Source: Bilabrum cf. latius
Taxonomy: Eukaryota
Direction: 5' to 3'
NCBI GenBank assembly: GCA_965178125.1
Contig: OZ237742.1
Span: 992,001-1,056,000 of the forward strand
DNA: 64,000 nt
The notes beneath the pieces are model-generated. The model was not told the origin of the DNA and ran no database searches. It was given only the letters and a program-made list of their open reading frames with translations. The stretch's first letter is position 1. The number at the start of each line of letters is the position of its first letter. Shown one piece after another: positions 1 to 64,000 of the stretch. The position numbers and the translations under genes are program-made.

Positions 1-1334
1 ACCTCCACGTGCTACCGAATCGCACGGAGCCCCTGGGCCCGAGCACGATCGTGGCGCTCTCCCAGCTGGAGACCGTCCTGTCTGTGCAGGGGCTGGGACC
101 GGAGGACCCAGTCAGTGAGGTGGGCATCGACGGAATCACCTTCACAGGCACCACTCCGACGTTTCTGAGGAAGGACCGACCGTACACGCAACCGATTCTC
201 AACGTGGCTGGCTGGTCCGTGTACCTAGGAGCCGCGGTGGTGGTGCGAGATGCAATCAGGCCGTCCATCACCAGGTGCACGTTCCAGAGGACTGGAGGCA
301 ACGGCGTGCTGCTGCGCGGGGGCGTCGTCAACGCGAGCATCAAATGGAACGAATTCACGCAGACCGGAGACAGCGGCGTGGTCGCGTGGGGCGAGATCCG
401 AGGGCCCGACGCCACATACGACCAGTTTGTGGACGGGGCGGTGTTCGAGGGCAACTTCGCGCACGACCTTGGGCTGCTGGGCAAGCAGATCAGCGCGTGG
501 ACGCAGTTCGGGACAGCCCGCACCCTGATTCGGCGCAATGTCCTCGGTGCAATGCCGCGCGCAGCAGTCAACATCGATGATGGCATCTTCGGCGGCAACC
601 TCATTGAGTATAACGTCGGCTTCGAGTCCGTGAGGGAGTCTGCCGACCACGGCTGGATGAACCTGTGGAGCAGGGAGCAGGCCGTCTCTGTCCGTCCATG
701 GGACGGGGCCGTCACGCCGCTCGCCGACTGGAGCGGGGCCCGCAAGAACCTCGTGCTGGCTGCAGGCGGGACCCTTTCGAACTTTGATGGGGACGATGGG
801 ACGAGGTGGCTGTGGAAGGACCACAACTCTCATGCCTACGCTGGGGCCAAGAATTATCTTGGACACAGCAAGCATAACCAGAACTCCGTGCACGTCCTAC
901 CAGACCTCGGCATGATGAAGTCGCAGTGCATGTTCAGCGATGGCGACACGGAGCACGCTGGTTACGGCGAAACCTACATCAATAACACGTGCATCTTGCT
1001 GAACGCAACGGTCGCTGTGGATAGCGGGGGCTGTCAACACGGCAACGAGACCAAGACATCTGTGTCGTCCGATGGAAACACGTACTATGTGTCAAAGGCG
1101 AGCGGAGTGTAGTTCTCGTGCGGCGAGCAGTTGTACACGCAGCAGGAGTGGGAGTCCATGACCGGCAACGCAAAGAGCTCCAAGGTGCGGGTCGGGCTAC
1201 CAGCACCCGCACAGATCGTCAGCATGATGCTGGACACGGTAGTTGATGACGGTGGGGAAATGTAGCAGCCAGCTGCGGAGCGCAAGGCCTGGTGGATGGA
1301 CACGGCAAAGTACCTCCGCTAGCACTTTTAGTAA
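1..1334 (+). CDS. Right-handed parallel beta-helix repeat protein, pectin-lyase-like fold (5' truncated by window)
   Basis: Frame is open from base 3. Beta-helix-like repeats (CTFQRTGGNGVLL, NEFTQTGDSGV, IRRNVLGAMPRAAVNIDDGIFGGNLIEYN). Reads through TAGs at 1110, ~1263, 1320 and 1329 to TAA at 1332-1334. Confidence 0.7.
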
Positions 1335-1592
1335 GCATTCGCATGGCCGTGTCTCGTAGCTTTGTGGAGCACGAACACTTATTCGGGTTCCGGATCCGTT
1401 GTCCGCGGGACGCGTGGATCCCGATCAGATCTGATCCCGATACGTTACACCCATACTCTGGATCTTCAAATCATATATATGCATTGCGAAGTCACAGACG
1501 TGCATCATCAGTATACCGTATATGTGAGCAAGCCAACAAACGCTCCACGGCTCAATCATACATGAAGCCCTACTATTGAGCAGGACAAGACC

Positions 1593-4500
1593 TCAGATGA
1601 TCTCGGAGGTATCTGTAGCCTTTGTCCCACGTGTCAAGCTATTTGTAGCGGCTGTTGCCGCTACACCTGTGGCTTTGCCTGCGGAAGACTCCTCGACCGC
1701 ACCAGTTTCCCCAAACATGGACCTCTTTCGCTGCTCTGCCTTTCTCTTGTGCTCTTCGAAAGCCTCCTTCTCCTTCCGGGCTTTCTCGCTCTCAGTTTCG
1801 AACACGGTGTGCTAGCGGAGGATGCCGATGCTCTTGGCGCCACGGACAGCTGACCACCTGCCCTTGCCACGCGGCGGTCTCCACGTAGCCTGAGAGCCCT
1901 TTCGACTCCTGCCCGTTCCTGCACCCGAGGCGCGACTCTCGCTGCGACACCTGCCCGTGTAGCTCTCGTCCGTCGGAGCTCTGGAGCGACCCTGCCCGTG
2001 CGCGGCATAGTCTTCTTCGGCATCGTCCAGCCCCCCACCCATCCGCATTTTTCGACGTTCTGCCTTTCTCTTGTGCTCTTCGAAAGCCTGCTTCTCCTTC
2101 CGGGCTTTCTCGCTCTCAGCTTCGAACACGTTCAGGACCTTCGACAACTTGCCCTTCCCGCGCGATCGTTTCCGTTTGCTCTTGGATCTATTTCGAGCCG
2201 TGCCTGTCCCTGCATCTGACGTGCGACTCTCGCTTCGCGATCTATCTTGGACGCCTTCTTCAGTTGAAGCGCTGAAACGACCCGACTCAGGCACGGCAGC
2301 GCTACCTGACTCTCCAGTGCCCAGCGCAGAGCCGGCTTCCCCGCCCTTCTATTCATACGAGCCGCCCCGTTGTCCGCCCATAGTCGGCAACTCTTGGCTT
2401 CCATCCTCGGCCTCAAACAAACGCCTGCAACTCAATCGACGGCCCGAACTGGCACGAACTGCGACCGGGTTGGCCTTCGACTCAAGCTCAGAGTGGCTGG
2501 CTGACGGTAAACTATTCGGGTCTCCTTTCGACGATGCGATCAGCAGCTCGCGCTTGCTACGCATGAGACCAAGTGATGGCCTTGATTCTCTCGACTTCTC
2601 TTCTTCTGACAGCCCAGGAGGACGCTAGGGCGGCCGTGCAACACGTGACCTCCCCTTGGGTCCCGCACGCTCTGCCTCCTCCTTCTTCTCCTTCGCCGCC
2701 TTTGCCTTTGCGTCTGCTTCCCGCTACTTCCTCATCATGACGATCGGATTGCTAGTCACATCCTGCTTTTCTTGATTACGTAACGATTTGGTGCTGCTGG
2801 CGATCCCAGCTCCAGCTGCCATTGCACCCACTATACCGAGCCCGGCGGATCTGCTTGATGTTGGATCCACCGAGCCAGGAGAGGGCCCATCAGAGGGAAA
2901 ACAGCACGACATCCAGCCCTAGGAGCCACATGTACCAATTTCAGCGCAAGAAATCTGCAATCTCCCGCACACTGGGGCCCCCATGTAGGTCCAGATTAGG
3001 ATTCCAGCAGTCGCAGCGACGGACCATCCTTGGCCAGCAACTTCCTTGAAGTCCTTGCGGAAGCTGAATATGGCGTAAACGAGAAGCAGCGCGTTGGATC
3101 CAATCACTAGCATGGTGGCGGGGAACTCGAGGCTCATGTTGTACCCGCCTAGCGGATCGATCTGGCGCTCCACATGCACGGCTAGTACGGCAAGCAACGT
3201 GGCAGCTGCCACGGCCAGGGAGTACACATCCAGCAAATTCAGCAGGTCGTCATGCTAGTATTTAACAGCAGGAAGCACCCGGACTAGATCTTTGAGCCCG
3301 TCACCACCCTCTTCTTCATCGTCTTCCTCCCCGTCACTGTAGTCAGGGAAGACATTGATGGCGTCATCCACCACCTCCAGCAAGTCTTCCATGAACGGTG
3401 CATCCAAGGGATCTCGATCGAGGTCAGCAGTTTCCTGGTCACCGTCATTTTGATCGAAAGGCACATCAGTGCTTTGCTTCGAAGCCACCGAATCCCAAGC
3501 TCCATCGTCAGGCAGTCTTGCTGCGCTCGCGCCAGCAGCACTTGCAAGACGAGGGCCAGGACCAGGGGCACGTGCTACGAAGCCGCGAGCAGCCGTCTCT
3601 GAACGACTGCAGCCCTTTCCATCCTCGTTTCCCTCATCTTGTCGCCGCAGCAGACCAGTGCCCCTGCTTGGGATAGCCTGCAAGTGGAGATGAGACACGG
3701 TCTTTCGGCGCACCAGCTCGGATGGCCGCGATGGCTGCCTGCCACCTTCCTACGTTCCACGACTTGCGCTCTTTTGCTCCGCATCCATGGTCGGCGCGGT
3801 CATCCCCTCGCTGTCTTCTGACATGGTAGATCGATCCAGGCGTGCCAAGCCCCCGGGCCCCTTCACCTTCGCTCGAGACTCAATGCGAGCTTCCTACAAC
3901 CATTCACGCACAGCATCCCGCATCCGAGCCTTTTCGTAGCGTCGCACACTAGCATTACAAGCTATGCACATGGTGGCGCAGAACGCGTATAGTGTTTCGC
4001 CGCAGCACCAGCCAGCGTAGGGTTTGTCCAAAACCTCAGTTTCGAAGATGGCATGCGAGCGAGCCCCGTCTTTCTTCTCATGCATGTCATGCATTTCCTT
4101 TTTGAGCTTCCGGATGCACTCTCTACACCGTTTCGGGTAGCTAGCCTTGTCCCTGTCGAATTTTGCTTTCTGATCGATCCAGGTCTTCTCGTTCCCTGCC
4201 ATGGCCTTGGTCGGAGCCACTGGCTTTGGTGGCATGCGCGACTTGGCCGCATCCAGAAGATGGTACCATAAGTGGCTCTTCCAGCCAGAGTACATGGAAT
4301 CGGGCATGATGTTCCAGATCCTAGTGTCGGTTGCATCATCTTTGTGAGGCTCTGCGTTGGCGCTGGAGTGCTGACCATGAGCGTGTCCTGACCCAGCATG
4401 CGAGGACAGCCGACGGCTTGATGCACCTCTTGCAAGGGAGCCCCGTCGCCCAGAGGCCATCGATAGAGATCTACGTCGGCCATCTGCGGGCGCACGGTCT

Positions 4501-7500
4501 TCGGCCTCGTTTGATTGCACGCCGTCCTACTTGTCGAGCTCCACGGCATCAAACCCGAGACCCTCCCCTCTCGTAGCATCGTCCGGCTTCATGTATACGA
4601 CCTTGCCGGTTGCGGTGTCAAACATCACGACGGGCAGCCCGTCCTTGGTGGTACGCTGCTTGTGCTGGTACGGTCGAGCCAGCGTCTACAGGATGAGCGA
4701 AATGATCACAATCGACAGCATGGCCAGTACTTGAACCTCGGGACCTAGCGGGGCTAGCACCGTCACCGCCAGCGCCTGTGCCGCCTTCCGCAATAGATTC
4801 ACCGCCTCCCAATATTTGCGCTCCTCCTTCAGCCCCTTGAACATGAAGCTCATCGAGTTGTCCACCGCGATCCAAGTCTCCCTGGAAACACAAGTGCAGC
4901 ACCTGCCCTTGACGAGAAGAACGACTGCCAGTGGCACTCCCAAACTGAACCCCAAGAGCATTGGCAAAGCAACCCGCAACATTTCCTCAAAGTTATCCGA
5001 GCAGCGGTAGTTCAGGTTCATCGACAAGCGCAGCTGCCCTTGGTCCCGAGTCGTGCTACCAAACAGCTCCCAGTCACTCACCACTTGCTTAGATTCGTTG
5101 TAGGCTTCCCATTCAGACTAAGGTGCACCCGGAGCTGGCACAGTCAAGTTGACAGCTTCGTATGCTTCACGCCTGGCATCCACCAGGGCGTCAAATGCAG
5201 CTCCCTGTTCGGGCTGGATGGACCGGCATGATAGCATTCGAAAGGCCGCTTCTGTCATCGGTGTGTGCACAAGGAAGAATATCACCAAAACTGACAGGGC
5301 CATTCGGTTCAGCCACATGCGCAGCAGATCCACGAGCTCCGTCTGGTACGTCACTCCCTGCTTGATGAAGACATCTTCATCAGCTGTCTCGTCGCTGTCG
5401 CTGTCAGAGTTGTCGGGGCTGGACTTAACATTTGTAATCCTTCGAATCGAAGCAGCAGTGCTAGCCTACAGTAGGTTGCGCCTGGTGCTAAAGTTGCTAC
5501 GGAGACTCATCCTCTACAGCCACTGGTACTTCTTGGCAAGCAGAGGAACACGCAGAACCATCGAGTACCACACCGGCAAGTGGCTGATCGCCTCCCCATT
5601 GGACTTTTCGTTGACCGAGTCAGTAGCAGGCTGATCCGCCGCGGGTCTTTGAACGCTTGCCCTTCTTGGAGAACGAGGTAAGCCGTGAAGACTCTCCCGG
5701 CGTGGTTGGTGCTGGCTGGCAGACGCACGGCGCAATGCATTGCTCATGGGAGCGCTCTATGCCGCACTCTTTGTGGAGCGCCCCTGCTCAGCGTCTTGTA
5801 TCATGGCCAGCGCCTAAGCAGCACCCCCCCCAAATCGAACGTTCGACCTGATCATTCTTTTCTTCGCTGCATTCGACATCGACATGCTGTGGCCCCCTTT
5901 CATGACTGGACGCGACGGCAGCTGTCTGTTTGAATGCTAGGCGGCAGCAATTGGGTTCGTTGCAGTGGACGGACCGCCTGTGGATGCTGTGGATCGAGCT
6001 CCGAGATCCTTGCCACCTCTGACTAAGTCGATTCGTTTGCTGCCGAAGCACGAGCAGCAGCACGCATCTACCCAAGCCATTTGGGTGGCCCCTCGGGTCA
6101 TCCCTTGCTCCATCCGGTACTCCTCCCACGCCGTCGCCCTGTCAGCGTCGCTGCTATGCTGGTAGTAGATTTCCTCAGCCTTCTCCATGTGGTCGAGCCA
6201 AGCCTTGGACCTCTGACAGCAAACGGCGTCGTACAGCGTTGGCATGAACGGCGCATGCAAGGCCTTGTCGTTGTCAGGCCTGCGCCAGTAGGCCAGTGTG
6301 TACCGCCAAAACAGCATCAGGCCCCATACGGTGGCAGCAAAAAGCACCAGTCCAGGCAGAACCATGTACTTAAGTATCGTCTGTGCCACCGGATCAGAGC
6401 TCTGGGAAAGCATGCACTCCAGTGCCATCCCGTCAGTGGCAGCCGATGCCCCCACAGAAACACCGCCAAAGAAGTTGCCCATTTCAACAGGAAACTGAAC
6501 ATCAAGCGAGCTCACAATCGCCACTGTCTGCAAGTGAGTGAAGAGGATCTTTGCCGCGACTACTGTTTGCTGTTCCCCCTCCTCATTCTGCTGCTTCCAA
6601 GCCCTAACAAGCAGAAAGCCGAGGCCAGCAGCGAGCAAAAGAGCGATAAATACCTTACTGACCAGCCGGCCGATGGCCTACCGACCAGAATTGGAGGGAC
6701 ACTCAAGGCACCTGCCAACCGGGTTGCGGAAGAATCCATCTTCGCACTGCTGGCACATGACTCCGGTGTGACCGCTGGCACATTTCTCCAGTTCAAGGGG
6801 TGCGAGGGTACGGCTCCCAGCCAGTGCACTAGGACGACTTTCCCAGCCCTACGCCACGAGCAGTCTAAGCGTGTCCTCCGGCGGGACAAGCCAAAACGAT
6901 ACAACAGTCCCATTGGGGTACGCCCTTCGTATTTCACTCGGCCTATCTGTCCAGGGAGGTAGGACCGGAGTTTCGTCTAGATTGCTGCCCAAGTTGAATC
7001 CACTGCCTTCAAAGAGAGGCTACAAGCTGGCCAAGGTTCTATCACGACGTGCTCGTGCCTAGGTGCCTTCGTCTTCGCGAAGAGTACCATCATTCCTCTG
7101 TACTCTTCCGGTTGTCACAAGCTGTGAGACCTCTTTCAGAAGGCGCGATTGACCCACCAACTCCTTCGCTGCGGCTGCCGAATCAGTGCGCTCAATTGCC
7201 ATCTGGAGCTGTGTAGGCTCGGAAATATGCACCTGTGCAGAACCAGATGCGTCTGCCTCAGCTGGCACCGATACAGGGACACCTCTACAAACATCAGCCT
7301 AGTCGCAACGTACGAAGCCTACTTGGCCGTATGACCACGGCAAACGCTGATACCCTTCCAGGGCAGCAATCTTGGTTGCCACCTCACCTGCGCATACAGC
7401 TCCTTCGGGGCAAAGCATGCACTCCTGCTTGATGCCCATGTCGCTGCTGGGCCGAAATCGCCCAAATTGACAAGAAGATACAACTTTCCAGGGGACATAC

Positions 7501-10500
7501 GCCCATTCACTTGCACGCGCTTTCTCCTCAATACCATCAGCCACGTGCTCGGCACGCACACGCACAATGTATGGCTCGCCAGATGGTACATTAAACGTGG
7601 TTTCTGATGCGTACCAGGCCGCATCAGAGGAGAGATCATTGAGCCTGCCATTCGTGTTGTCTGCCAGAACAGCTCGCTGCCTGGCCTCTCTTAATCGCAC
7701 TAGGGTGCTTTCGAGGTCGCGAAGCTCCCCTTCGATCCCGAATCGGTCTGGATTTGACTGCAACTAGCTGGTGTTGCCGGCCTGCATTAGTGAAATTAGC
7801 CGGTCGAGCTCTTCATCCTCGAAGTCTTGCTGCAGCCATGGCGCCCAGCCACTCGGTGATTCAGGTGCGCGCGTCTCGAAGGCCGTCACCGCAGCATCGG
7901 TGCCGAACGCACTCAAAGAGGGCGCCGCTTCGACCCTGAACCTTTGCGTTGCAAGGAAATTGAGGGCTTTTGTCCCGCTGATTGCGTCCACGGCCTTCCG
8001 TTCCATGTACTGGTTGGGAAAGAACCAGCGAACCACCAGACGGAGGTCGTCTCCGACACGTCTCCATGCAGCGGGGGCCAGAGGAGCGACTGGGGGCGGG
8101 AAATTCTGGGCTATTCCCTTTGGAGTGAGTCGTGCTCCATCGGGTGCGTCCATGCCGTAGTTGCCTGGAGGCAGCAATATGCCCCCTTCATCGCCAGCAC
8201 CCGCAGCCGAAGAAGGGGCAGTTGCGACGAGCTCCCCGTCATTTGTATACCTCTTGAGGTTGGACACTCCGGTGCGGATCACCACTTCGATTCCCAAATA
8301 GGGCTACACGGCCCCCGGATTGGTCAATACGTAGATCCATAGGGGATGATCATCGGGAATCTCACATGCAAGCTCGGTGCTCGACACAAACCAATCAAGT
8401 GCGCTGCCCGTGCAGGGCACTCCACCGATCGTCAAGTTGACAAGGTCAGCTGCAACGGCCCCGAATCCTTCTCCTCGGATGGATATGGTCTCGCCGGGGC
8501 CAGCTTCTTCCGGCACAACATTCAGCACACGAGGCGGAGGGATCAGCGTGACTGCATCTAGAGATGGCTGAGACGCAAGGCCGAGCACATCAATGCTCGC
8601 AGAGGAGACGGGCCATGGGCCTCCAATCACACCGCGGCCATCTGGGTCCGCATCCTCTGCGGCCGCGTCTGGCTGCACCCACCGCAGCCCAATGCAGCGG
8701 ATGGCCCGGCCTGGCTCCAGCATCTCAAGCCTAGCGCAATCTATACCTCCAATACGCACGCGTGAAGCCTGTCCAAGCACCAAAGGGAAGGCACGTCCTC
8801 GAAGAACCAAAGAAGCGTTCGGGTCACCGGCCAGGATAGCTTCCCTGGGCTGACCGGGTGAAATGGCTGGGGCGCAGTACGAGAGCTGCTGTGGCCGACT
8901 TACCACGCCTCCGGCCATCTGCACCCTGACCTGTATGGCCGATCCGGCTCCAGGCGGGAGCTCTAGCCGAATGCTCTCTGATGACATCCACACCGCAGGC
9001 ATCAGCGACCCGGTTGGCGTGCTGAGTGCAGCTGCTGCATCCGTGACAGGCACTGGGACTCCGAGCACGTAGCCCGGTATACCCATCATCTCCTTATATC
9101 CTACCGATAGAAGGCGGCTTGCATTCAGAAGCCCCTCTTTGGAGCCTGCCTCGACTGACGTACTGTTAAAGCCAGCCTGCAGTGCTTCGGCTTCTAGGTC
9201 AAATCCGGACAGCAGCACGTACTCCACGTCCTGCGGCCCTCTGCCAAACCCGAGACCCTCAATGATTACCGCACTTTCAGAGTTACCCCCCAGTGTATCT
9301 GAGCATTGCTAGAAGGACAGCTGCAGCACTCGAGGAGGCGTCATCAAGTCTACACCGGCAAACTGCATAGCCTACCCCGCTACTGCTATTTGGAGCGTGT
9401 TTCCTTCCCATGGAACTAGTGAGCTCAAGTCGTCATCCTGCCAGCCAAATTCATTGCATTGGATGCAGCCAGACACCGCGATCAACCCACTTGTGAGGCG
9501 CGGGCGTAGCTCAGGGAACCCCTTTCGGTCAACCCACTACTCAGCTGCGTCCAGATCAAGATCCTCGACATTGGTACAAGGCACACCACCAAAGGAGAGC
9601 ACCCTGTCAATGAAGAGCTGCGAGCCAAGTGACTGGCCACACACTAGCCTTTGCCTTTGCTCGCCATAGACAAGGTAGTTGGGCTCGACTATCTCAACCT
9701 GTGGTGGCGAGTAGGAGAGCTCCCCAACTGCGACCGACCCTGTCCGCAGCACAACCGCCACGCCAATCGAAGCGCCAGCTCCTCTAGGAACTTCAACCTC
9801 GAGTCGAGAGCTCGACAGCCACTGTACCGGACTATCAGGTGCGGAAACGATCACACCACCAGACTCATTCGTACTTGGTGCGTATCGACTTGAGAGCGCA
9901 GCACAGCGGCGAGCTGCGATAGGGAGCGGGCTCGGTGATGGTGACACGCTGGCTGACGGAGCTGCGGACGGGGTTGATGTCGGGCTCGGTGACGTCGTTG
10001 GGCCTATTGAAGGAGTTGTCCCGTTCGTGGTAGAGTTCGGACTATCTTGGGGATTCGCGCTGGTAGATGGGCTCGGCTGGGTGGATGCACTGGTGCTGGA
10101 ATTTTGGCCAGGACTTGGAGACGGAACTAGGCTTGCAGTTGAATTACTGGTTCCATTTGTTCCCGCATCAGTTGAGCCATTGCTTGCAGCTACAGGCAAT
10201 GTGGAATTCAGTGTGCTATTTCCATCGAACAGCTATCGACGACTTGTTGGTCGCCAACTTGATGAAGCTTCGACTGGTTGTAGGCGGCGTAACGTTCTAT
10301 TTGTGGATGGCGGTACAGGGCCAGAGCTGTTGGTACCTGCCGCAGTGCCATTCCCAGCGACTCCAGTCGATCTGTTTGATACAGCAGTAGAGTTGTCCGG
10401 CACCGGTGGAGATGGCCACGGCGTCGCGCTCACAGAAACATTGGGCAGTGTCTGGTTTGATGGTATGCTCTGGTTCAGCTAAGCTGATGGGCTGACCGAT

Positions 10501-13500
10501 GCCGTCGGTGTGACCGATGCAGACGCTGATGGTGATGGGCTCGGTAACGGGACCCTGCCAAAAATAAGCGGCTCGACGCAGGCATCCACCACACCATCCA
10601 GTGTTGACCAGGATGTATCGTCATCAGCAGCCCCAGATGCGGCCTCTGGCCAAGGGCCGAACACTACTGCGACCACATCCCTCGCATCAAGCCCGAAGCC
10701 CTACCCCTACACAATAATTGTACCGTACCCTGACGTGTCATAGTCGAGCTCAGGCTGCGTCTTTGGAGAAATACCAGATACTGAGGGGGCCCCTTGCAGA
10801 TCAACAACAGTGCTTGATACCACTGTTTGCCCTGCGATCACCACCTCAACCTCATTGGTAGGCCAGTCGTCCGCAGCGCGCTCCCACACTGCCGTACCAT
10901 TCGAAAGCATGGACTCGTACCGGGGCTGAAGGCCGTCGCACGTGATGTATCGCCCAGACAGCACAGATTCGTCTGCATCTGCCGCCGCTGCCGCCCCGCC
11001 GAACCTCTCCACAATAGCCAGGTCTGCCCCTTGTCGCACGGACCGGCACGGCAAGCCACCCAGAGTGATGCTGTCGATGTGATCGTCACGAAAGCCAAAG
11101 TATCTTCCTTGCAGCACAATGCTCACGTTGAAGTCTCGTGCGAGGGCGACCGATGGAAACGCTCTTACGATCTCAGGTCTTGCGAATGACAGTGTGCTAG
11201 TCCCTCCAATAGGAGACACAAGTCCAGTGCGCATACCAACAGAGACTGGGGCGTCCGCACCAACACCCCTTGGAATCATTACTGCAATGTTGTTCTCCGA
11301 GCTCCACCGGATGAGAGGACCGTCTTGGTTATTAAGTTCCTGCTCATTCAGGCTACTTACATCGTCATCTGCGCCCGGTGGAGGGGCCATTTCAAGCAAT
11401 ACCTACCCATCATCTCCCGTCTCAGCACTAACTTCCCAAAATTGCACTGAGCCATCAGCGTACACAAAGCGATTATGGTACACGCTCACAGCATTCTCTC
11501 CTTCCCCGAATCGAACGTACTCCACATCACCATTATACAGGCGATCAGGCCCCGTTTCGCCGACCTGTCGATCTCTCGTTCCAAAGCCAAGCCCAGCGAC
11601 TCGAGCGAACAAACCACCAGTGGTCGGGACACGCCCATCGCTGCTCGGCACTACCCCAGTCTGCTTTGGCAGTCGCGAGTCTGCAGCAACTGTGACAGCA
11701 AGCACCTCGGGCGGCGGTTGCGGTCTGAGGAAACTGCGCTTCTGCGTCTCTGTGATCTTGCCTTCAGACGCGTCGCTGGATATTCGAAAGAAAACTATCT
11801 CTGAGTCCCACAGCTGGGGCGCGTCGACAATGCACCCGAGCTTCTTTGACTGCCCCGGGACGGGAAATGAGTCAGAGCAGTTCAGCGGGCCGATTACCAC
11901 CTGCTCGATTGTGATTCCAGGCTCCTGCAACCCCTCCCCGGAGATCTCGAAGCGATACTGCATGCTACCTGGCGCTGCTGGCAGCACAATGGCCGGCTCA
12001 ACGCTCAGCACGAACACCTGCATGTACCGCAGGCCGTTGGGTTCCGACCGGGTGCCTCCATATAGGGCGCTGACTGAGGCAAATGTAGAGTCAAACGATG
12101 ATGTTAGGGATGGAATGTACAAGCACGGCTCACCAGAGCCACACGCAGTGTCACGAAGACTCGATATCCCAGGAGGGTTGACGTTCTCCCAGAATCCCGC
12201 AGACACGAGAGAGCCAGAAGCTGATGACAACACGTTGGTCACCTGCAAGCTGATATCTTGTAGCATGAGCGAGATTTCAGCTCCATTCTGACGGCTGCGC
12301 TCTATGATTACTTTCTAGGCATCTGAATTGACCAACCAATCGGGTGGCAAGTTGGACACGGCAGCCTCCACGAATTGATCACCCTGCGGCTCTAGTCTCT
12401 GCCTGTCAACGTTGCTAGCAGGATTGTCAATCCATCGGAGCGTTGGCTGCTCGAACGAAATGGAGGGGCGCATCTCTCGCTGCAGCGGACTAACCACAAC
12501 GTGCCGAGGTCGCCACATCGTCGCGCCCTCAAACCCCCTTGCCCACTCAGGAAGCTCGACTCGGTACTGCGCGTTTGGGCTCCACAACTTCACGGTAACA
12601 GTGCTACTAGTCATGTTAATGGACCTCTGGTTTGTATGCAGCACACCATGAAGAGGCTGCGGCACCCGTGACATTGCTGCCCCGCCAAGTGCGACAGCTG
12701 CATCCACTACTGGCGGCTCGTTGAAACGAGCATCTACTAGTGGAGTGGCGAAACCTCGCATCGATTCATCACCGGCACTGGGGCTGAGTTGACCACCCGC
12801 AAGAGACAACATTTGTGTATCTAAGCGTTCCCAAGGTTTTGCTACCGCACTGGAAACCATCAAGTCTACACCGGCGCCGAACGGAGCTTGAGCTCTAACC
12901 GTAGCAGCAGCTGGCACCCAAACTGCACATACAGCAGACAGGGTCTACAAATCGCAGTACACATTTGAGGTGCTGCTTCTGTCAGTTTGGTGAAGCGCTA
13001 GCGAGGCACAGTCATTGTCAGTGATTCCTTGAGGCACTGGCTGGCCAAGTGTGAACGGTGAGACTCGGGGCTGCGCTGCAGACCACATTTGCTGAGCTCC
13101 CGCAATCGACATGTTCGTATGTGGAAGCGTCACGTCGTCGTACTCTATCACAGTTGACTCGCTACAGCCATAATTGGATCCTCGATCGTACGACCCATTC
13201 AGAAACAGAAGCTAGTCACTAAATCTATACCTCACGTTGGCTCTAAAGAAATTTCTGACTTGTCGCGACTCTTGCCGAAGCTAGCAGTCATTCCAATCGT
13301 CAATGGCTTGACTGACTAGGCTACTTCCAGTACCAGTGACAGATACTTCATCTTTGAAGTACGCACACACGACATCCATCACATCGTTCCAAAGTGGTTC
13401 ATCATTTGCTTGCATGCGGCAAGACACCCTGGTTCGCTCCCGGCTCGGCACTCGAACCACGTACGTACCAAGATCAAACTCACCAACACCGCGGCTCAAT

Positions 13501-23885: not shown

Positions 23886-25643
23886 ATGGGACTTTCCGGC
23901 CCGTCTCTGCCGCTAAATGTTGTACATATCACTATTTTATTTGCAATGGCGCGGAAATTGATAGATCGCACCTGTTTGCTTCGCAAATGAAGACGAAAAG
24001 ATGTGTTTTATCACCCAAATCCGTGTCTGCAGCGAGAAGCAGCGAATCCATCGAAAAACGGGATTTGGGACAGCTTAAAGTACACTCTACAATGCAACCG
24101 ATAATCCGGAGGGGGCCTTTGGCCTGAAAGGGTCGGGGGTCTTGTAGTCCTTTGTTTTTAGGGCTCCTCTGGATCTAGGTGATCACCCAAACCCCCTCGG
24201 GGGCGACGGTGCATCTGGGTGTTTATGGAATCTTTACCCAGCAATCCGTCGAATGTAACGGAACAATACACAATTTACTGGTTTTTGCCGGTTCCGGATC
24301 AGCAATTTGCGCGGCGCCCAGATAATTCGGAGAAGAAATCATGATGCAATTCGATTCAGCGCGCTCTTGCGAGTCTGCTGGTGCGCCTTTCAACTCCATA
24401 CGATGAGATTAAGTCTGTTAACATGCCATTCAAAGAATTGGCCTCTAGCAGGGAGCTGCAGCTTTGCGCGGCGCCAAAACTGTGTGATTAGTGTCGCACG
24501 ACACCCCGACACTGCCCGCATACCCCTTTCTAGTCTACAAAATAGACCTAAAAATATACCTGTATGATAATGATGCTAAATTATACGCTGCTGTGCAGAC
24601 GAATGTCTGAATAAGATTCATTTGGACACGACAGGGTCCACGGTCATCCCTCTGGCAGCCGCAACAAACTTGCTTCGATTGGCCCTCTGAGATACTGAAT
24701 TTGATTACACTCCTCATAATTCTGAGCAAATTGATGACTTTATTCAAATAACGCGCTCATATTCTGCTGTGCGGTTCATGAGTAGGGTGTTTCCCGTGAG
24801 GATGACTGAACCAGGCCGCAGAGTTAGCTATTGCACATTTACCTCACCAATCTGCAGCTTACCGCGAATTGAGACCAACCACTACATTTTTTGTATTGAT
24901 CGTATTCAGAAAATCGAACAGGAGGCTACTATGGCCATCATTAGGACACGAGCAGCACCAGCAGCTGTGCGGGTGGCCAGATCCAGAAGACCTGAAGTAC
25001 GCCATGCTATTCTACACCATTGGGACTGAAAATCCGTACACTGCCTTTTATTAGGTATATTAATACCATGATTAGTCTCAAACTAGTACTGGCCTCATAG
25101 ATTTGACACAATTGTGTTCTGAATGGTACCAAACCACTGGAAACAGCCACAACTTGCGAAATTGTAGGACCTGTACAAATACAGTACCATACACAAACAA
25201 ATCGTATGTATAAATAAACTATAAGTGTATCAGGACAGTGGTGAATTGGATTCTGCCCAAAATGAATCGAGATCTGACGTCAAATGAGACCATCCTCGGT
25301 TCTAATGGACTCTCTGTGACATACTGGAGCGGTGATTTGTTTTAAATACCTATTTGATCTGTAATGAAGTCGACCAATAGCGCATTCTATTCGTCGAAAT
25401 GATTGCACAATAGGGATGCAGCGTGGACTGTGGTTTCAGTGGCATTTGGATCAGCGTGCTGCTCCTCTCGTTAGCCTTACGGTGGTTGTATGGTAATTCA
25501 CTAATTACACAATGAAAAAACCTCATTACATGGAAGATACGCTATTGATGTCGCGTGATAATCGACGAGTTGTATTGTGTCGGGGATCGTTGCGGTCAAG
25601 AATTGGTGTGATGAATGTGTCGGGGTAAGTTACAACCGACGGA

Positions 25644-32336: not shown

Positions 32337-32469
32337 TACCCTATTCTCGACGCCATACTAGCCTTGTATTGTGCCGTGAGTAGCGATTATCTTCAACCTA
32401 TTTAGACTCCGAATGACACTATATTGAGGACACGAAACCGCGGCAGAACTGGCAGATTGTGAGCCTATC

Positions 32470-46600: not shown

Positions 46601-46700
46601 GGAGGGGTCCATTCGGGCCTCTGCGGCAGCTAGGCGAGGCGCCGCGTCTGTGCTGCAGCCCGTGCCTGCCGAGGCGGCGACGTGGTCGAAGCTTACGTGA
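43676..46700 (+). CDS. CFAP99: Cilia- and flagella-associated protein 99-like coiled-coil protein
   Basis: Intron 43847-43949 (GTGAGC..CAG). Motifs TVPRPFALT, VKLNTAAVLRE, ELRDASEFHAWQ, GLLCEMSMVEARER. TAGs at 45240 and 45666; ends at TGA. Confidence 0.75.
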
Positions 46701-52346: not shown

Positions 52347-53118
52347 ATGGGCAAGGACATCGTAGCAGGTGGCCGCAACGTGGCGCACAAGCATAGGAAG
52401 GGGCCTAAGACCGACAACGTCTACATCAGGCTGCTCGTTAAGGTAAGCGACTGCAACTCATAGCTTGCGATTAGCTTGGCCGTGCCAATAGCCGCGCATA
52501 GTATTTGTATGGAATTCAATTCCATGGCCAGTCGTGTTGGCACCGTGGCCACCTAGGAACCTGCATCATGCACGCCCAACTGCATCTGCTGTCTGCTCTT
52601 GTGTTTCGCAGCTTTATGAGTTCCTGGTGCGCCGCACCGGCTCTGAGTTCTGCCGCGCTGTGTTGAAGCGCCTTATTATGTCTAGGACCAACCGCCCCGC
52701 GATGGGCCTGGCCCGCATCCAGCGCTTCATGGCCCCCAAGGCCGGCGCCGAGGACCGGTCCAAGAAGATCGCCGTGATCGTGGGCAGCGTCACCGATGAC
52801 GTGCGCCTGACCGGTTTCGAGTTCCCCGCCATGACTATCTGCGCACTGCGCGTGACCGAGGGCGCCCGCGCGCGCATCGAGGCCGCCGGCGGCAAGGTGA
52901 TGACGCTGGACCAGCTCGCCCAGGTGGCTCCCACCGGCGAGGGCACCGTGCTCATGCGCGGTCGCCGCACCACCCGCGAGTCTGCCAAGCACTTCGGAAC
53001 CCCCGGCCAGATCGGCAGCACTGCCGTGCCATTCGTGCGCTCCAAGGGCAACAAGTTCGAGCAGGCCCGCCTGCGCCGCAGCAAGCCCCGCACCAAGGTC
53101 AAGGCCATCAAGAAGTAA
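52347..53118 (+). CDS. RPL18: 60S ribosomal protein L18 (eL18)
   Basis: Exon 1 MGKDI...DNVYIRLLVK, intron 52443-52611, exon 2 LYEFLVRRTGS..VLKRLIMSRTNRP..TLDQLA..PFVRSKGNKFEQAR. Ends at TAA; contains no TAG. Confidence 0.95.
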
Positions 53119-53522: not shown

Positions 53523-55349
53523 TCAATTCCTCCACATCTTGAGAGTCCGGTCCTTGCTCCCGGTCGCCACGCGGTCCCCCGCAGGCGACCAGTCCAGCGC
53601 GTACACCTCGTCAAAGTGACCCGCCAGCGTGCCCGCCGCCTTGCCCCTGGACTCCTTGCCCGCCACCCACAGCTTGGCCGTGGAGTCCTTGCTAGCAGAC
53701 ACCAGGAACCGGCTATCGGGGGACCAGCACACCTGGTACACGGGGCCCACGTGCCCGTGCAGAGTCACCAGGAACTTCCCAGAGTGCCCGTCCCACACAC
53801 GCACCTTCTTGTCAAAGGATGCGCTCGCAACGAACCTGCCGTCCGGTGAGAAGCTGATGTGGTTCACCGCGGCCTGGTGACCCGACATCCTCTGCTTCGG
53901 CCGAACACTCGTCACACCCGAACCGCCGCCCGAGGCCAGCGCCAGCGCCTTGCCCGGCTCCCAGAGCATCAGCGTGTAGTCGTCCGAGCAGCTCACCACC
54001 CTCTCGCCCCCCTGCCGCAGCGCCTCCCGGGCCCTCTCTCGCGCGATGGCCTGCAGGGCGAGCGGGTCTCCTCCGCCCTCCCCTTTACCGCCTGCCGCCT
54101 CGGTGCGAGGCCGCTTGGCGGGGCTAGAGCCAGCCGAGGTGCCACTCGCTGCTTTTGGCTAATCTGCACCGGCTCCGCTGGCTGCGGCGGTCGACGGACC
54201 CGACGATGATGACGCGGACGAGGACGAGGACGAGGAGGCGCTGGACGCTGACGGCGCCGCGGCTCCATCTCCTTCCTTCTCCTCTCCCTTGTTGCCTTTG
54301 GCAGTGGGCGGCTTGACCTCGCCCTTGGGCAGCTCTGACGGCTTCCCAAAGTGCAGGGCGCCCGTCCTCGCCACGTAGTCCGTGGACAGAGCCAGCGCGT
54401 TGACCCTGTGCCCGTGCCCTGCGAGCTCGGCCACCAGCACGCCCTTGCCCCCCTCCCCATCCTTGGGCACCCTCCAGCACTTGATCGTGCGGTCTCTGGA
54501 GCACGTGTACAGCAGCCCCGTGAGTCCCCACCGCACGCACTCCACGCTGTCCTTGTGCCCCGCCAGAGAGAACAGAAAGGTTCCCCTCGAGGCGTCCCAC
54601 ACGCGCACGGAACCGTCCTTAGAGGCAGTCGCGAGCCGCCTGCATGTGCCGCCCCTGGCCTCGCTAACGGGTTCCCACGCCATGGACGTGATCCAGGCCT
54701 TATGTCCCACCAGCGGCCGGCACGCCTCCTTGCCCGTGCCTGGGTGCCACACGCGAGCCACGCCAGAGTAGTCGCCGCTGGCGAAGAGCTTGCCGTCGGG
54801 GGAGAAGGCGGTGCACAGCACGTGCGACTTGTGGCCCTCGCACTTGTGCTTTGGCATGCTCATGAAGGCGTCCCAAAAGCGGACCAGGCCGTCACCGCCG
54901 CCGCTGGCCAGCACACTGCCGTCCGGGCTGAACGACACGTGCAGCACGGGGGCAGTGTGCCCCGTCATCGTGTCGGTGCAGCGGGTGACTGGCCGCACTC
55001 TATAAAGACTGAGGGGTTGGTATAGCACGGCCACGGTGCTTTCAGAAGTCAGCCCCTTTGACTTTGCAGACTGCCCCAGTGTGTTGCCCATCTGATCGCC
55101 GCCGATGAAGAAGCCATAGGGCATGATTTCATCGTTCCCGAGCGCCTAGTTCACAAACGATTCGAGCTATGCCGGTGTAGTCGTGCCGGGTACCTCAACG
55201 GCTCCTCCTGTGGGAACACCATCCAGTGTTTGCAGTTGCACAAAGAACGACGAAGAGTCTGCAGTGGCCTTTCCAGAAGCTTTGCTGAGAGATTCTTCCC
55301 CACCACCGATCTGCGATCTTGGACGCTTCAGCGATCCTTTCCCGCTCAT
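53523..55349 (-). CDS. NLE1: Notchless/Rsa4 ribosome-biogenesis WD40 protein
   Basis: NLE ubiquitin-like domain (YQPLSLYRVRPVTRC), WD40 repeats, LVSCSDDYTLMLW and DRTLKMWRN end. TAGs at 55167, 55146 and 54159; ends at TGA. Confidence 0.93.
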
Positions 55350-58349: not shown

Positions 58350-59024
58350 GCAACCTATCGTTGGGATGCGAATCGATTGGGCTCGCAACGCGGCCAATTC
58401 GGCGCGTCTCTACGCACCGCATTATCCCTGTCTAAAAATAACGCATTCCAAGTAAGTATCATTCAACCCAACACGCAACACGACGGCACATCAGGTGCTG
58501 CTGAGCGGATCGATCTCACTGAAGGAATGAGCTCCCAAGAAAATAAGCGATGAGATACCATGCCTAACAAAAGAAGGCATGATCCACCCCTGCGAGTGCT
58601 GAAACATATCAAGGCCTCGCACAGGCACGATACGCGGCTCCTCCGACTCCTTCTTCGCGGCAGCCATGACGAAAACTTTGCTTTCGTCGTCCCGAGGCGC
58701 CCGCGGAGGGTTGCGAGCACTTTTGTGAGGAAAAGTCGGAATATCAATTTAGCTCGAGAACTGTGTGCCAGACGCGACGAGGGAGTCCAGAAGCAGGGTT
58801 TATTGCCCTTTGTTTGTTACCTAATTGGTCTATTTGGCATCAATTTGCCCCTTCGCGCTGGTTCGAGCCCTGAACCTACCTGGAGGCGCAGTAACTCCCC
58901 GTCGTGCGGCAAGGATCGCACCGCTGGCAAGCAGACTCCTAGACTCAGCTCAGACAGCTATTTTTGCGCATAGCTCGCAGTATAGGATTAACGGCTTACT
59001 GAATTTATTGGCTGAGTTCGAATA

Positions 59025-62000
59025 ATGGCCGCTGCAATGGCGTTGAGCGGCACGGCCGCAACCGGTGGCGAGGCTGCAGTATCCTATAGGCAGCGCAACC
59101 TGAAGGCTGGGCCGCAGCAGGCTCAGACCCAAGAGCTTGCCCTAACAGCATATTCACATATTGTGCGATCGCTGGGCCCGTCTCACGAAGAGCTTCTCCT
59201 GAAGACGTACGAGGCGATGGACGAGGCATTCTCCGAGGAAGCTGAGTTTTCGATGTTTGCGGACTGGGCACCCGGCGTAGCCCGCCCGGATCGACCGATT
59301 AGCTTGGTACGTGCTGAGGCATTTGCAGACTCGGAGCACAAGCCCGAGGAGACCCCGGCAGCTGCCGTTCTGTCGTCGAGGTCGAAGAAGTTCTGGAGCT
59401 CGGCCGAGGCGCCGACGACCTCCCGCCTCGGCGTGCGGCTGCCCAAGCTCCAGATGGTTTCCGCCATTGAAATCGTGTTCAACGACGCGTCCACGCCCCC
59501 CTCCACGGTCCCTGCCAAGGTGCAGCTGGAGCTCTCCGAGGACGGCGCGGCCTACGAGCCCGTGGGCGAGCCGGTCAAGGTCGCTCGCCCCAGCGCCGAC
59601 TCGGAAGGGGCGGCTGCAGCGGACGACGGGTCCCCCGCAGAAGATCTCGAGGCCGTGATGGCGGCGGCGGATGCCCGGGGCAGCGGGGCGGGCGGGGACG
59701 GGGGCGAGGTCGTGAGCGTGCGGCTGCCGGTCGGCAAGCCGATCCGCTTCTTCCGGTTTAGCCTCACGGGCCAGCTGGAGCCCAAGTCGACGTCCGGTGG
59801 GTCGGGCGGCAAGCCCACCCACCAGGTGAAGCACGTCAGCGTGCTTGTGCCCGACGAAGACGCAGCCGACGTGCCCGCCGAGCAGGTGATCAGGGACCAC
59901 TGCGCCGCACTGGCCGTAGCGGGAGCCCCCGGGGGGCTGTCCCTGCCCGCCAAGCAGCGGGCGCTGAACGCCGCCGTGTACCTCTTCCGCGCCACGGCTT
60001 CCTTGCATGTGGGCGTGACGCTGCTTCGGCTGCTGGCATCTGTTCTCTCGGACGTCCGCGAGGCGGCCCGAGCGACCGTCCCGGGGGGGGGCGAGGAGGC
60101 GGAAGCCGCGGCGGACGAGGCCGTGGCCGCGCCTTCGGTTGCAACCGCGCTGCTGGATGACATGGCCGTGCCAGCCCTGGTGAGCTCGCAGCACATGGCC
60201 AGCGAGGGCACTCCGGGTGATATCGTGCAGCTGCTGGCCAGCGCAGGGGCGGGGGGCGGGGCCGCCTCCGGCCCGTCTCTCAAGCCCGAGTTCGACCCTG
60301 TGCACAAGGGCCCCGGCGCCACTTTTACCAACGGCAACAAGACCTGGACGGCGACGAGGGGCAGCAGCAACTGGGGCGTGGCGATCGATGGCATCAGCAG
60401 CGGGCAAGCCAGCTGGGAGTTCGAGATCATCTCTGACATGGACGACGACGAGCAGGGGTGCTGCGGGTTTGCCACCCGCAAGCCCGTCATCCAGGGCGGG
60501 TACTCCAACACCGGGTCTGACATCAACTGCATTCGGCACTACAACGGAGGGCTCTACACGGCCGGCAGCCAGAACCGATCCATCGACGCGATCCATCCGG
60601 GGTGCGTGGTGCGATTCGAAGCCAACATGGACAAGGGCGAGGTGACGGTGTTCATCGACGGCAGCAAGCAGAGCGGGGCGCCCCATTTCACTGGGCTCAA
60701 GGGCAAGACCATCTGGCCCGCCGTCACCGCCTATGGAAGCAGCGTGTCGATCAAGTTCAAGTCCTACAAGAAGGCAGGCGCCAAGGGAGACGGCGACCAG
60801 GCGAGCTACCACCAGCTGATCCACGGGTCGCTCCCGCTTGCCGTGGGAGACGTGCGGTCGCAGAAGTTCGTGGGCCGGCTGGGCGCGCTCAGCGGGCAGG
60901 GGTACACCAAGACCAAGATCAAGGTCGCGGGTGCCCGCCTCCCGCACGCCTACTCGATGTGGCCGGGGGCGGGTTCCACGGCCAACGCCCGGCCCGTGGG
61001 GGGGAAGGCGACTGCTGCCGCGGGCGGTGCCGCCAGTGAGAGCAAGACTGGGGAACAAAGTGGCGAGGCGGACCCGGCTATGGCTCTGGTGGGCGCGGAC
61101 GTCGGCCTCGATGATGCTTACGCCCGCTGGGACATGGCCCAGGTGATTGAGTCGGCCGAGAAGCAGGTCAAGGAGGCGAAGAAGAAGGCCAAGAAAGGAG
61201 GAGACAAGGACGAGAAGAAGAAGGGGGGCGACAAGAAGGGAAAGAAGGGGCCTGATAAGCCGGTGGTGGATGCGGTGCCCTCCAACGTGGGTGTCCTCTA
61301 CCTCCAGTTCGCGCTGGACGACAGCACGCAGAAGACTGCCATCCCCGTGGCCGTGGACGTTCTAGTGGACGGCCGCCTGGCCGCCCGCACCGCGCCGATG
61401 GCCCCCGCCGCGAACACGATGGCCGAAAACGACTTCATCAAGGCCTGCGTGGAGCCCAACGACTTCCGCCCTGCCACCGTGGTGCCCAGCAAGGTGCCTC
61501 AGGTGTACCGCGTGGCTGTCTCTAGGAGCAGCACGGTGGAGCTGCGGGCCAAGACGGTCCCGGGAGCCCGGTTCCAGTCCAAGCAGGCTCTGGCCGCCGC
61601 TCTGGGCAAGCGCTAGGCCGCCCGCGTGGTCGTTGCCTGCCTGGAGGCGGACACGAAGCTGGAGGGCCAGGACGATTTCGTGGGCATGCGCACGGCGAGC
61701 CAGCCCGAGGGCACCGTGCTGCCTCCAGTGATGGACCACAGCCAGGTAGGCATGGGCATCGGCCAGGCACTCAGCCAGGCCGCGCAGGTCCTGCTGGAGC
61801 TGTGCACGGCGCACAACGTTGCCACTCGTCAGGCCGTGCTGGTGACCGGGGATGACCTGGGTGACGATGCGGACGACGACAAGAAGGGCGAGGAGCCGGA
61901 GGAGAAGGAAACAGAGGAAGACAAGGGCGCTGGTGACGACAAGAGCAAGGGGCTGAGCAAGGCCGCATCGAAGGCAAAGAGGGCGGCCGACGCACTCAAG

Positions 62001-63176
62001 CGGCTGCGTAAGAAACTCGAAGAGCCCATGGCCGTGGAGGTGCGCGGGGACACTCTACAGTCCATCGGGGAGGTGCTGAAAGACGTCAGGGGGCTCGCCG
62101 AGATCGAGGCCAGGCGATTCGCCTCCAAGCATGGTCTCCCTGCTGTGGCGGCTGCCAAGCCATACGAAGTGGGGCCCGCGAGCCAGTGCGCTGCGGGGCT
62201 GATGCGGGCCGCGGAGTGCAACCTGAGGCGGCTGGTGGCCTCGAGGATCGACCCGCGGGCCGTGGGGATCCTGCTGCCGGGCGACAAGGGCGCGCCGGCG
62301 CGAGGCACGCTGGGCGGGCTGCACGCGGCCCTGGATTCGTATGTGAAGAACGAGTCTGGGGAGCCGGCGGACGTCTTGCCGGAGCTTAGGTACGCCGCCG
62401 CGAATGCCGTAGACGCTGGTCTGGAGGTGCTGTACCCCACCCCCGCGGAGCGTCGCAAGCTGGTGGCCGGTGTGCTGGGTGATGGCGCGACTCTGGAGCT
62501 CCAGTTCGCCTTCCCCACCGTGAAGAAACCTCCCATGGCCCTGCCCGGGATGGAGGGACTGGCGGGGGAGGACGAGGACGAGGATGAGGACGACCTGGAT
62601 GGAATCGCTTCCGCCGAGGCAGGCGAGCTGGAGGGCTGCCCCAAGAGCCGCATCCGGGCCATCCGTGACATTTCCAAGCGGGACGTGCGGTTCGACCGTG
62701 CCATGATGCTGGCGCAGCTGGCAGCCGAGCAGAGGGGCTTCCGCACAGAGCTGGTGGGCAAGTGGGGCCAGTACCTGCACCTGCTGGTGGAGCTGCCCGC
62801 GCCCAAGGACGGTACCGCAGCTGCGGCCGCCGGTGCCTCCGAAAGCAAGGAGCCTGCCGGTACCGGTAGCGACGCCGTGCAGTTCGTTTCGGAGGAGCTG
62901 GGCGTGGTGTTCGAGAGGGCGGGCATGGGCGCGTGGCAGATCCCCAAGGGGTGCACCGAGCCGCGCATCCCCATGGAGATCAAGCGGTTCGCCGTGTTTG
63001 ACGGGGCCGACCGGAACTTTGAGCAGGCGGGACTGGGCTTCGTTAGGCTGTTCCCGGCGAGCGCTTGCTCCTTTGACAGGGCGCTGGCCGGCGTCTCAAG
63101 GTTTGTGGGAGGGGACGGCTCGGATCAGGCCGATGCTGGGGCGGGGTCGGGACCCGCATCGGGAGCCGGGGTGTGA
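59025..63176 (+). CDS. Large protein with galactose-binding/DOC-like beta-sandwich and SPRY domain (~1,383 aa)
   Basis: KFWSS..LGVRLP..VSAIEIVF..FFRFSL sandwich; SPRY motifs ISSGQASWEFEII, GCVVRFEANMDKGEVTVFIDG, IWPAVTAY. A single TAG at 61614 joins two long ORFs; ends at TGA. Confidence 0.75.
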
Positions 63177-63381
63177 GCGTGTCTTGCTGCCTGTTGATTG
63201 GTCAAGAAAATCGCTGAAGAGAATCGCTGCTGGTTGCGCCGGTGCATGGTCATTCCCAAACTGGTGGGAAAGGAAATAAGATAGTACAGCGCCAGACAAT
63301 ACCTCCCGTACGAAGCCACGAGCTCATTTCATTACAGATTCAAATTCCAGCTTGTTGTCGGCCAGATTGTTAAACCCTCCC

Positions 63382-64000
63382 TCACGAATAGGGCGGGGGG
63401 GCCACCGCGCCAGGTGCCCCCCCAGGCGAACCCCCTCCATAGTACGGCGGCGGCGCGTTGCTGGCATATGGGTTCTGCGCCGACGGGGGCGGGCCGGCCC
63501 CGAACAAGGCCCCTCCAGGGGAACTTCCTCCCGCCGGGGGCGCCGTGGCACCGATCCCGCCATCCTCCCCAGCACCAGCACCCTCACCGGCCGCTGGAGT
63601 ACCAGCGCCGCCTGCCCCCGAGCTCGGTCCCTCCCGTGCCTGTGCCTTGGACGCTGCCCCGATCTTCTCCTCTCTCCACTCGATGATCCTCGACCGCAGC
63701 CCGTGGTTGGGAAACACGGTGTTGGTGGTCATGTCGGCGCCCGTCTTGGGGCTCCTCATGTTTCCCTTGGCAAACCACGAGAGCACGCTCGCGCGCTCGT
63801 ACGTGTGCCCGTCCGACGCAATGACGGGGTCGTTCATGACCTCGTACGTGATGGGGCACATGAACTCCTCGGGGGCGTCGTCATCGTCTAGCCCGAGTTC
63901 ATCGAACCGAGCCGCAAGCTTCTCGCCGACCTCCTGCTCGTGGGTCTTGGCGGGGGCCGCGGGGGTTGCCCCGCCCGCAACCCCGCCCCCCGCGGCACCC
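63382..64000 (-). CDS. U-box domain protein, 3' part (5' end beyond window)
   Basis: PEEFMCPITYEVMNDPVIASDGHTYER..WF..SPKTG..PNHGLRSRI, Pro-rich tail with PPPY; ends at TGA. Confidence 0.88.
   Translation of the reverse strand, partial: GAAGGGVAGGATPAAPAKTHEQEVGEKLAARFDELGLDDDDAPEEFMCPITYEVMNDPVIASDGHTYERASVLSWFAKGNMRSPKTGADMTTNTVFPNHGLRSRIIEWREEKIGAASKAQAREGPSSGAGGAGTPAAGEGAGAGEDGGIGATAPPAGGSSPGGALFGAGPPPSAQNPYASNAPPPYYGGGSPGGAPGAVAPPPYS

Follow-up and report, generated by a model that had tools for sequence, protein, structure and literature searches.

Evidence for a sense reading of UAG, most likely as glutamine, with UAA and UGA kept as stops, in nuclear DNA of a probable stramenopile

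In nuclear genetic codes, UAG and UAA are nearly always reassigned together, and the cases in which they have been uncoupled are few. Here we describe what is very likely another such case, in a stretch of 64,000 nucleotides (nt) from Bilabrum cf. latius (GenBank assembly GCA_965178125.1, contig OZ237742.1, positions 992,001 to 1,056,000 of the forward strand; hereafter the window, with coordinates counted from its first letter). In our judgement its sequence is best explained if UAG is translated on cytoplasmic ribosomes, most likely into glutamine, and if UAA and UGA, the latter being the commoner, act as terminators. Local G+C in the window is 50–67%, and all of our evidence on the code comes from this one stretch and from its relatives. 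As far as the accessible text of McGowan et al. 2024 (PMC11687900) extends, the uncoupled UAG cases are Iotanema, an uncultured rhizarian, Scotinosphaera, Protocruzia, some phyllopharyngeans and one oligohymenophorean. UAG alone means glutamine in Iotanema, Protocruzia tuzeti and two phyllopharyngean lineages; the other UAG changes listed there are to leucine in the rhizarian, to serine in Scotinosphaera and, in one ciliate, UAA to lysine together with UAG to glutamate. That text names no stramenopile in either group (PMC11687900). The same source gives as users of NCBI table 6, in which both UAA and UAG are glutamine, many ciliates, hexamitin diplomonads, some ulvophytes, Streblomastix and Amoeboaphelidium (PMC11687900).

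Under the standard code, the longest open reading frame in the window is 866 amino acids (aa); when TAG is read through, it is 7,447 aa. If TAA is read through instead, the longest frame stays at 866 aa, and with TGA it grows to 1,031 aa; in this control neither codon opens frames comparable to those opened by TAG. The largest TAG-open frame covers 7,447 codons on the minus strand (1593..23936) and holds 67 in-frame TAGs, in line with the more than 60 counted in a single 22-kb frame by an earlier note on this DNA. It is followed by frames of 1,978 codons with 23 TAGs (26073..32009, minus strand) and 1,082 codons with 13 TAGs (35423..38671, plus strand), and by several more of 600–1,400 codons. 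Across nine confident frames, together 15,207 codons, TAG occurs in frame 117 times and TAA and TGA not once. The two off-frames of the same DNA contain 49 and 66 TAA, 219 and 372 TGA, and 145 and 132 TAG; TAG is therefore about as common in frame (roughly 0.8% of codons) as off frame, and TAA and TGA are excluded in frame. With TAA and TGA as frequent as they are off frame, a run of 7,447 codons would be free of both with a probability of about 1e-76. The earlier note had likewise seen no in-frame TAA or TGA, a result that is partly circular: because frames are delimited by these two codons, their absence inside frames is partly built in. The weight is carried by the length of the frames, by their domain content and by the coincidence of frame ends with homolog ends, as in NLE1.

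Domain content is clearest in a protein kinase gene. Its main exon (26073..31741, minus strand; Pfam Pkinase, 2.6e-48) contains 23 in-frame TAGs, carries the kinase motif [17 protein letters not shown] at 29334 and ends in TAA, and Pfam places a C-terminal SH3 domain downstream of all 23 TAGs. Since this SH3 domain and other conserved domains lie beyond TAGs, they could be produced only by reading through UAG. In-frame TAGs are also present in five further genes identified with Pfam, all of them closed by TGA: DCP2, with box A and NUDIX domains and four TAGs (33490..35271, minus strand; also aligned to PDB structures); NLE1/Rsa4 (Notchless), with three TAGs (53523..55349, minus strand; PDB 8fl0, 3.3e-129, aligned to residue 484 of 485); a CoaD-like cytidylyltransferase, with a TAG at 32755 (32428..33123, plus strand; CTP_transf_like, 2.7e-12); a fusion of EF-hand and guanylate kinase domains, with three TAGs (41750..43468, minus strand; Guanylate_kin, 4.9e-51); and a Casc1_N protein, with three TAGs (48508..51351, minus strand; 1.2e-06, 28.9 bits against a family cut-off of 28.2). 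A protein of 1,074 aa without a Pfam family (35447..38671, plus strand; ends in TGA) contains 13 TAGs, and the 65 residues past the last of them are conserved in the homologous fragments P0245 and P0244. The names that the earlier note gave to the TAG-bearing kinase, DCP2 box A, CoaD and NLE1 genes are upheld by Pfam and PDB matches; its "Vps39-like" for 35423–38671, the frame of the 1,074-aa protein, found no confirmation.

The density of TAG falls as G+C at third codon positions (GC3) rises, from 0.9–1.2% of codons at GC3 0.57–0.64 to 0.07–0.5% in six complete frames with GC3 of at least 0.72. An exception to this trend is the gene at 3–1334, whose 5' end falls outside the window; it has four TAGs in 444 codons (about 0.9%) at GC3 0.80.

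Eight public sequencing runs from four studies contain at least half of the words of 33401–43400. One run per study (X1, X5, X6 and X7) was compared with 26001–46000 in the form of Logan contigs, and no differing letter, insertion or deletion is listed for any of the four. GT..AG joints of 88–113 nt occur in contigs of X6 and X7 and in none of X1 or X5; on the minus strand they lie at 31742–31853, 32013–32125, 40961–41052, 41208–41307 and 41391–41478. Because of these joints, X6 and X7 behave as transcript assemblies; no run is on record as RNA, and the RNA nature of these two is deduced from the splicing. The first two joints are introns of the kinase gene, the first of them 112 nt long, and both are spliced out in X6 contig 17, which matches 26482–31741 with no other letters and spans 22 of the kinase gene's 23 TAGs. 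The 13 TAGs of the 1,074-aa gene are all found in X6 contig 19 (35378–38709, again without a differing letter) and in X7 contigs 24 and 25, and X6 contig 21 holds all three of the EF-hand/guanylate kinase gene. Together, X6 covers 39 and X7 16 of the 44 in-frame TAGs of five genes. At these sites the X6 and X7 contigs, which are contigs and not raw reads, carry TAG with no CAG or TGG in its place. With TAGs unchanged in transcript contigs, and with a related organism that uses UAG in the same way, the earlier note's central claim that UAG is a sense codon is supported.

This related organism, and a closer one, came from a homolog search with the 1,074-aa protein. Four fragments with 93–97% identity (P0241, P0242, P0244 and P0247), all from one Logan contig, represent a sibling of the window organism. 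They start or stop at the window's TAG sites 82, 600 and near 885, and one ends exactly at residue 357, where the window has CAG and the more distant relative has TAG. The sibling is thus known in public protein collections only as TAG-cut fragments, so this lineage has been mis-annotated by standard-code gene calling. The same search returned pieces of 42–65% identity from metagenomes, one of which (P0243) led to two environmental loci, L001 and L002. Compared with window 32428–38671, L001 (207–4321) and L002 (3–3687) keep the same gene order and strands, CoaD (+), DCP2 (−) and the 1,074-aa gene (+), at a G+C of 0.49–0.51, below that of the window. They contain 11 in-frame TAGs in 808 codons of the large gene, three within the coding part of DCP2 and two within CoaD. 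Aligned with those of the window, their proteins have identities of 0.49 (800 positions), 0.66 (395) and 0.62 (188). A single TAG, at the CoaD position corresponding to window 32755, is common to the window and L001. Given in-frame TAGs in the same three genes of the relative, the code would be shared by a clade.

Which amino acid UAG encodes was approached from homologs, from profiles and from pairwise comparison with the relative. In an alignment of NLE1 with 120 homologs, one TAG column is glutamine in 99; another is mixed (S 46, E 23, Q 16, K 15), and the remaining TAG lies inside an insert relative to the homologs. A DCP2 TAG column, also against 120 homologs, has E 54, D 33, T 7 and Q 7. 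We then scored the window proteins against home-made profiles, built from homologs of NLE1, DCP2 and the 1,074-aa protein without the query and near-identical fragments, placing each of the 20 residues at TAG and summing the gain over X. Glutamine came first at +11.5 bits, followed by N +10.1, E +8.0, H +7.5, K +6.5 and S +5.7; at the low end were Y −0.7, L −4.3 and W −8.5. Among nine residues tried, glutamine also gave the best Pfam Pkinase score (173.6, compared with 172.4 for X and 171.6 for L). At two of four window TAG sites crossed by the sibling fragments, the sibling's residue is also glutamine.

Between the window and L001/L002, 28 TAGs have an aligned partner residue: Q six times, S and E four times each, K three times, D and G twice each, and seven singletons. 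Most of these partners are glutamine itself or amino acids with which it readily exchanges. In one direction, 12 window TAGs face S, K, Q, A, D, E, H, Q, R, N, F and T; in the other, 16 TAGs of the relative face Q, Q, S, Q, G, S, Q, M, D, E, S, E, K, K, G and E in the window. Where a window glutamine stands opposite the relative's TAG, its codon is CAG in four of four cases, one transition away from TAG. Log-odds over the 28 partners favour glutamine both with BLOSUM62 (Q +17.7, E +9.9, K +6.6, Y −19.3, L −30.7), where its lead is 7.8 bits over glutamate, 37 over tyrosine and more than 48 over leucine, and with tables made from the same alignments (Q +12.2, with S next at −1.7 and E at −4.5). 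Ordinary glutamines are conserved in just 29% of aligned pairs between the window and L001/L002, so that six Q partners in 28 are what a glutamine codon would show; the Iotanema paper, in its accessible part, argues likewise from low glutamine conservation (Panek et al. 2017, PMC5304391). If UAG is sense, then, we can name glutamine as its probable meaning with high confidence.

Other comparisons discriminated less. In PDB alignments the TAGs stand opposite variable positions (R and A in NLE1; S and L in DCP2; T/I and A/L/E in the kinase), and the alignments of these three proteins alone could not name the residue; nor did amino-acid composition discriminate between glutamine and leucine. The 67 TAG columns of the giant gene were left out of the residue tests. 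Leucine had been considered as a candidate on account of a DCP2 column with L in 94 of 120 homologs and of an alignment with the kinase SLK, and was rejected in view of the profile and pair tests.

Several points weigh against a UAG that is always sense and always glutamine, and we give them here together with the alternatives that they favour. The alternative that survives best is a dual meaning of the type seen in Condylostoma and Blastocrithidia, with UAG as sense inside genes and as a context-dependent stop at some gene ends. Since our frames are delimited by TAA and TGA, gene ends at UAG would be invisible, and some genes could terminate there. In addition, the 5'-cut gene (3..1334, plus strand) ends in ...TAG TAA, with one of its four in-frame TAGs directly before the TAA and another four codons earlier. 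Against this stand the ends that we checked. Of 14 frame ends, 11 are TGA and three are TAA (nine TGA and two TAA in eleven frames, plus TGA in the Sdh5 and U-box genes and TAA in ribosomal protein L18, RPL18), and not one requires TAG. Just two of these ends are anchored by homology, and neither is a TAG: in NLE1, TGA follows one residue past the alignment to the last residues of human NLE1 (PDB 8fl0), and the RPL18 match is followed by TAA. TAGs occur as near as about 70 codons before true ends, with conserved sequence beyond them. In L001/L002, the two frames that end inside the contigs, CoaD and DCP2, both stop at TGA. In Iotanema, none of the homology-defined C-termini was found to fall on UAG, according to the part of that paper open to us (PMC5304391). 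UAA and UGA are the sole terminators seen in the window and UGA is the main one, as expected for a G+C-rich genome. The earlier note's statement that all 19 of its modelled genes end in TGA or TAA agrees with the 14 ends checked, which are not the 19 models themselves. Overall, we regard a dual role for UAG as unlikely.

Somewhat less likely still is a sense reading for a residue other than glutamine, whether glutamate, lysine, serine or asparagine, with leucine or tyrosine further behind. Asparagine, glutamate, histidine and lysine follow glutamine closely in the profile test, where the margin is only 1.4 bits over N and 3.5 bits over E. The partner residues include four E, four S and three K, and in the sibling of 93–97% identity the residues at four window TAG sites are Q, S, Q and P, so that just two of four are glutamine. 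A TAG within box A of DCP2 falls in a hydrophobic column (L in 94 and F in 17 of 120 homologs, and F in the relative), a misfit for glutamine. The profile and pair tests partly share sequences and are not independent, and the sample is a single 64-kb window with about 123 TAG codons, fewer than 40 of which fall in alignable columns. UAG is moreover known as leucine, serine and glutamate in other lineages, as the accessible text of PMC11687900 records. On the other side, glutamine ranked first in every test run, be it the NLE1 column, the profiles, the pairs or Pkinase. Leucine lies 15.8 bits below it with the profiles and 48 bits below it with the pairs; tyrosine, with the pairs, lies 37 bits below. 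Asparagine codons are not one step from TAG, and the sites at which the relative's TAG meets a window glutamine are all CAG.

That the TAGs are untranslated, as sequencing or assembly errors, pseudogenes, missed introns or RNA-edited sites, is hardly credible: the run tool does label X6 "RNA? (probably DNA)", and Logan contigs drop rare variants so that partial RNA editing could go unseen, yet the four runs, each from a different study, do not differ in a single letter, one X6 contig with two spliced introns also holds 22 TAGs, X6 contig 19 and the X7 contigs run uninterrupted through the 13 TAGs of another gene, the same TAG-bearing frames lack TAA and TGA, and the TAG-bearing genes are kept, with TAGs of their own, in a relative of 49–66% identity.

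On this reading UAG, and not UAA, would be decoded by a glutamine transfer RNA (tRNA-Gln) whose anticodon, CUA, differs in one base from the usual CUG, and recognition of UAG by eRF1 would have been lost or weakened. A tRNA that reads UAG and not UAA must have the anticodon CUA, an argument made for Iotanema in the accessible part of PMC5304391, where the eRF1 carries a T32G change in the GTS motif. By analogy, and in line with the corollaries drawn in the earlier note, we infer tRNA-Gln(CUA) and a UAG-weak eRF1 as the likely basis of the code. Scans for tRNA genes found none in the window and none in L001/L002, an Rfam scan of the window gave no match, and no eRF1 gene lies in the window; the missing tRNA and eRF1 genes belong with the points against our reading set out above.

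The source of this DNA is probably a stramenopile. Of the 120 best NLE1 matches, 19 rows name an organism, and 18 of these are stramenopiles (oomycetes, brown algae, Tribonema, Vaucheria, Chrysoparadoxa, Ochromonadaceae and Hondaea); the remaining one is labelled "archaeon". Identities are just 37–56%, so there is no close named relative among them. In a DCP2 tree from a quick search, the window and L001 group together with a Shimodaira–Hasegawa-like approximate likelihood-ratio (SH-aLRT) value of 100, within a clade (97) that includes Cafeteria; a wider clade (97) adds Aphanomyces, and fungi, Amoebozoa and Discoba fall apart from it. As the evidence comes from single genes, this placement is provisional. 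The earlier note had called the organism a flagellate, for which the support is the weak Casc1_N match and a CFAP99 gene that we could not confirm (see below).

The remaining features of the window add little to the question of the code. The giant 7,447-codon frame ends in TGA; its one Pfam match, to DUF7630, is weak (1.3e-05, below the family cut-off), and a search with a fragment of it (3837–12239; 2,801 aa) against proteins of 1,540–4,902 aa gave no match at E ≤ 1e-3. By eye only, and with no tool applied, its protein shows repeated G-x-G-F-G segments, a cysteine-rich stretch and a hydrophobic C-terminal part that is probably membrane-spanning. DCP2 has a C-terminal tandem repeat (33828–34393) with a unit of about 94 residues and an in-frame TAG of its own in every copy. 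One X7 contig omits 564 nt here, with 55 letters common to both sides, which marks a collapse of the repeat and not an intron. A similar repeat lies at 1075–1700 of L001, with TAGs at matching places. The EF-hand/guanylate kinase protein begins with MGxxxG and has a long acidic low-complexity linker between its domains.

A coiled-coil-rich frame of 949 codons with two in-frame TAGs (43851..46700, plus strand) matches no Pfam family; it is possibly the gene that the earlier note named CFAP99. A transcript-contig joint marks a GT..AG intron just upstream of it (43847–43949, plus strand). Inside this frame, at 45700–45880, is a G+C-rich repetitive stretch with many loose ends and odd joints to 45851 in all four runs, and the assembly may be unreliable there. 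At 40676–40712, short X1 contigs (37 and 793 nt) meet whose word depth is about 635, compared with about 23 in their neighbours, and X1 and X6 have a loose end in common at 40676; the site resembles the border of a high-copy repeat. An exon of RPL18 (52447..53118, plus strand; Pfam Ribosomal_L18, 2.6e-63) ends in TAA and has no TAG within the domain match. A frame of 1,386 codons (59016..63176, plus strand; GC3 0.84) ends in TGA and holds one in-frame TAG. Pfam further names a second NUDIX protein, Sdh5 and a U-box protein in the window.

Our search of the full-text literature, with subscription journals and supplements outside its scope, found no report of nuclear UAG reassignment in stramenopiles. 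The main text of a paper on the MAST-3 stramenopile Incisomonas contains none of "stop codon", "genetic code", "TAG" or "UAG". A UAG-only change to glutamine thus appears to be unreported in stramenopiles so far. We lean, with a little better than even confidence, towards the fuller proposal that this is the first nuclear code change in Stramenopiles: UAG, and no other stop, would have been reassigned independently to glutamine across a clade, in a G+C-rich genome with UGA as the main stop, and the change would extend over at least three lineages, namely the window organism, its 93–97% identical sibling and the environmental relative of 49–66% protein identity. If true, it would offer a fresh natural test of how eRF1 and tRNA-Gln(CUA) uncouple UAG from UAA. 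As an independent case in another supergroup lineage, it would add a data point on the frequency and route of such uncoupling. For this lineage there are already genome DNA, transcript contigs and no fewer than two relatives. Relatives with and without the code would serve as comparative material for finding the responsible eRF1 and tRNA changes. There is also a consequence for annotation: standard-code gene callers cut such genes at their TAGs, and fragments of this kind (P0241, P0242, P0244 and P0247) are already in public protein collections.

How does this code compare with those already described? The codes of NCBI table 6 also read UAG as glutamine, presumably through a tRNA-Gln derived from the CAG reader, but in them UAA is sense as well; in the window, no TAA occurs in frame in 15,207 codons and three of 14 ends are TAA. 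The rhizarian exLh is like the window in having a UAG-only change within the group of stramenopiles, alveolates and rhizarians (SAR), with UAA and UGA as stops (PMC5304391). Its UAG is leucine, at 82 of 86 hyperconserved UAG sites (PMC5304391), whereas leucine scores −4.3 bits (profile) and −30.7 bits (pair) in the window, where one DCP2 column is the exception. UAG is rare or absent in exLh ribosomal protein genes (PMC5304391), and the TAG-free domain match of the window's RPL18 is similar. The ciliates Protocruzia tuzeti and two phyllopharyngean lineages, with independent origins, share with the window a UAG, and not a UAA, that means glutamine (PMC11687900). Their genomes are macronuclear, unlike the window with its 50–67% G+C, its GT..AG introns of 88–113 nt and its stramenopile best homologs. 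The closest match is Iotanema spirale (Fornicata), which according to the accessible part of PMC5304391 has the same table, with UAG alone as glutamine and UAA and UGA as stops. There, as in the window, in-frame UAGs are scattered in ordinary genes; in Iotanema none was seen as a terminator (PMC5304391). The two differ in lineage, Iotanema being a metamonad and the window organism probably a stramenopile, and in their main stop, which is UAA in Iotanema (104 UAA versus 15 UGA; PMC5304391) and TGA in the window (11 versus 3). The code described here is thus most probably that of NCBI table 15, the Iotanema type: a known variant in a new lineage.

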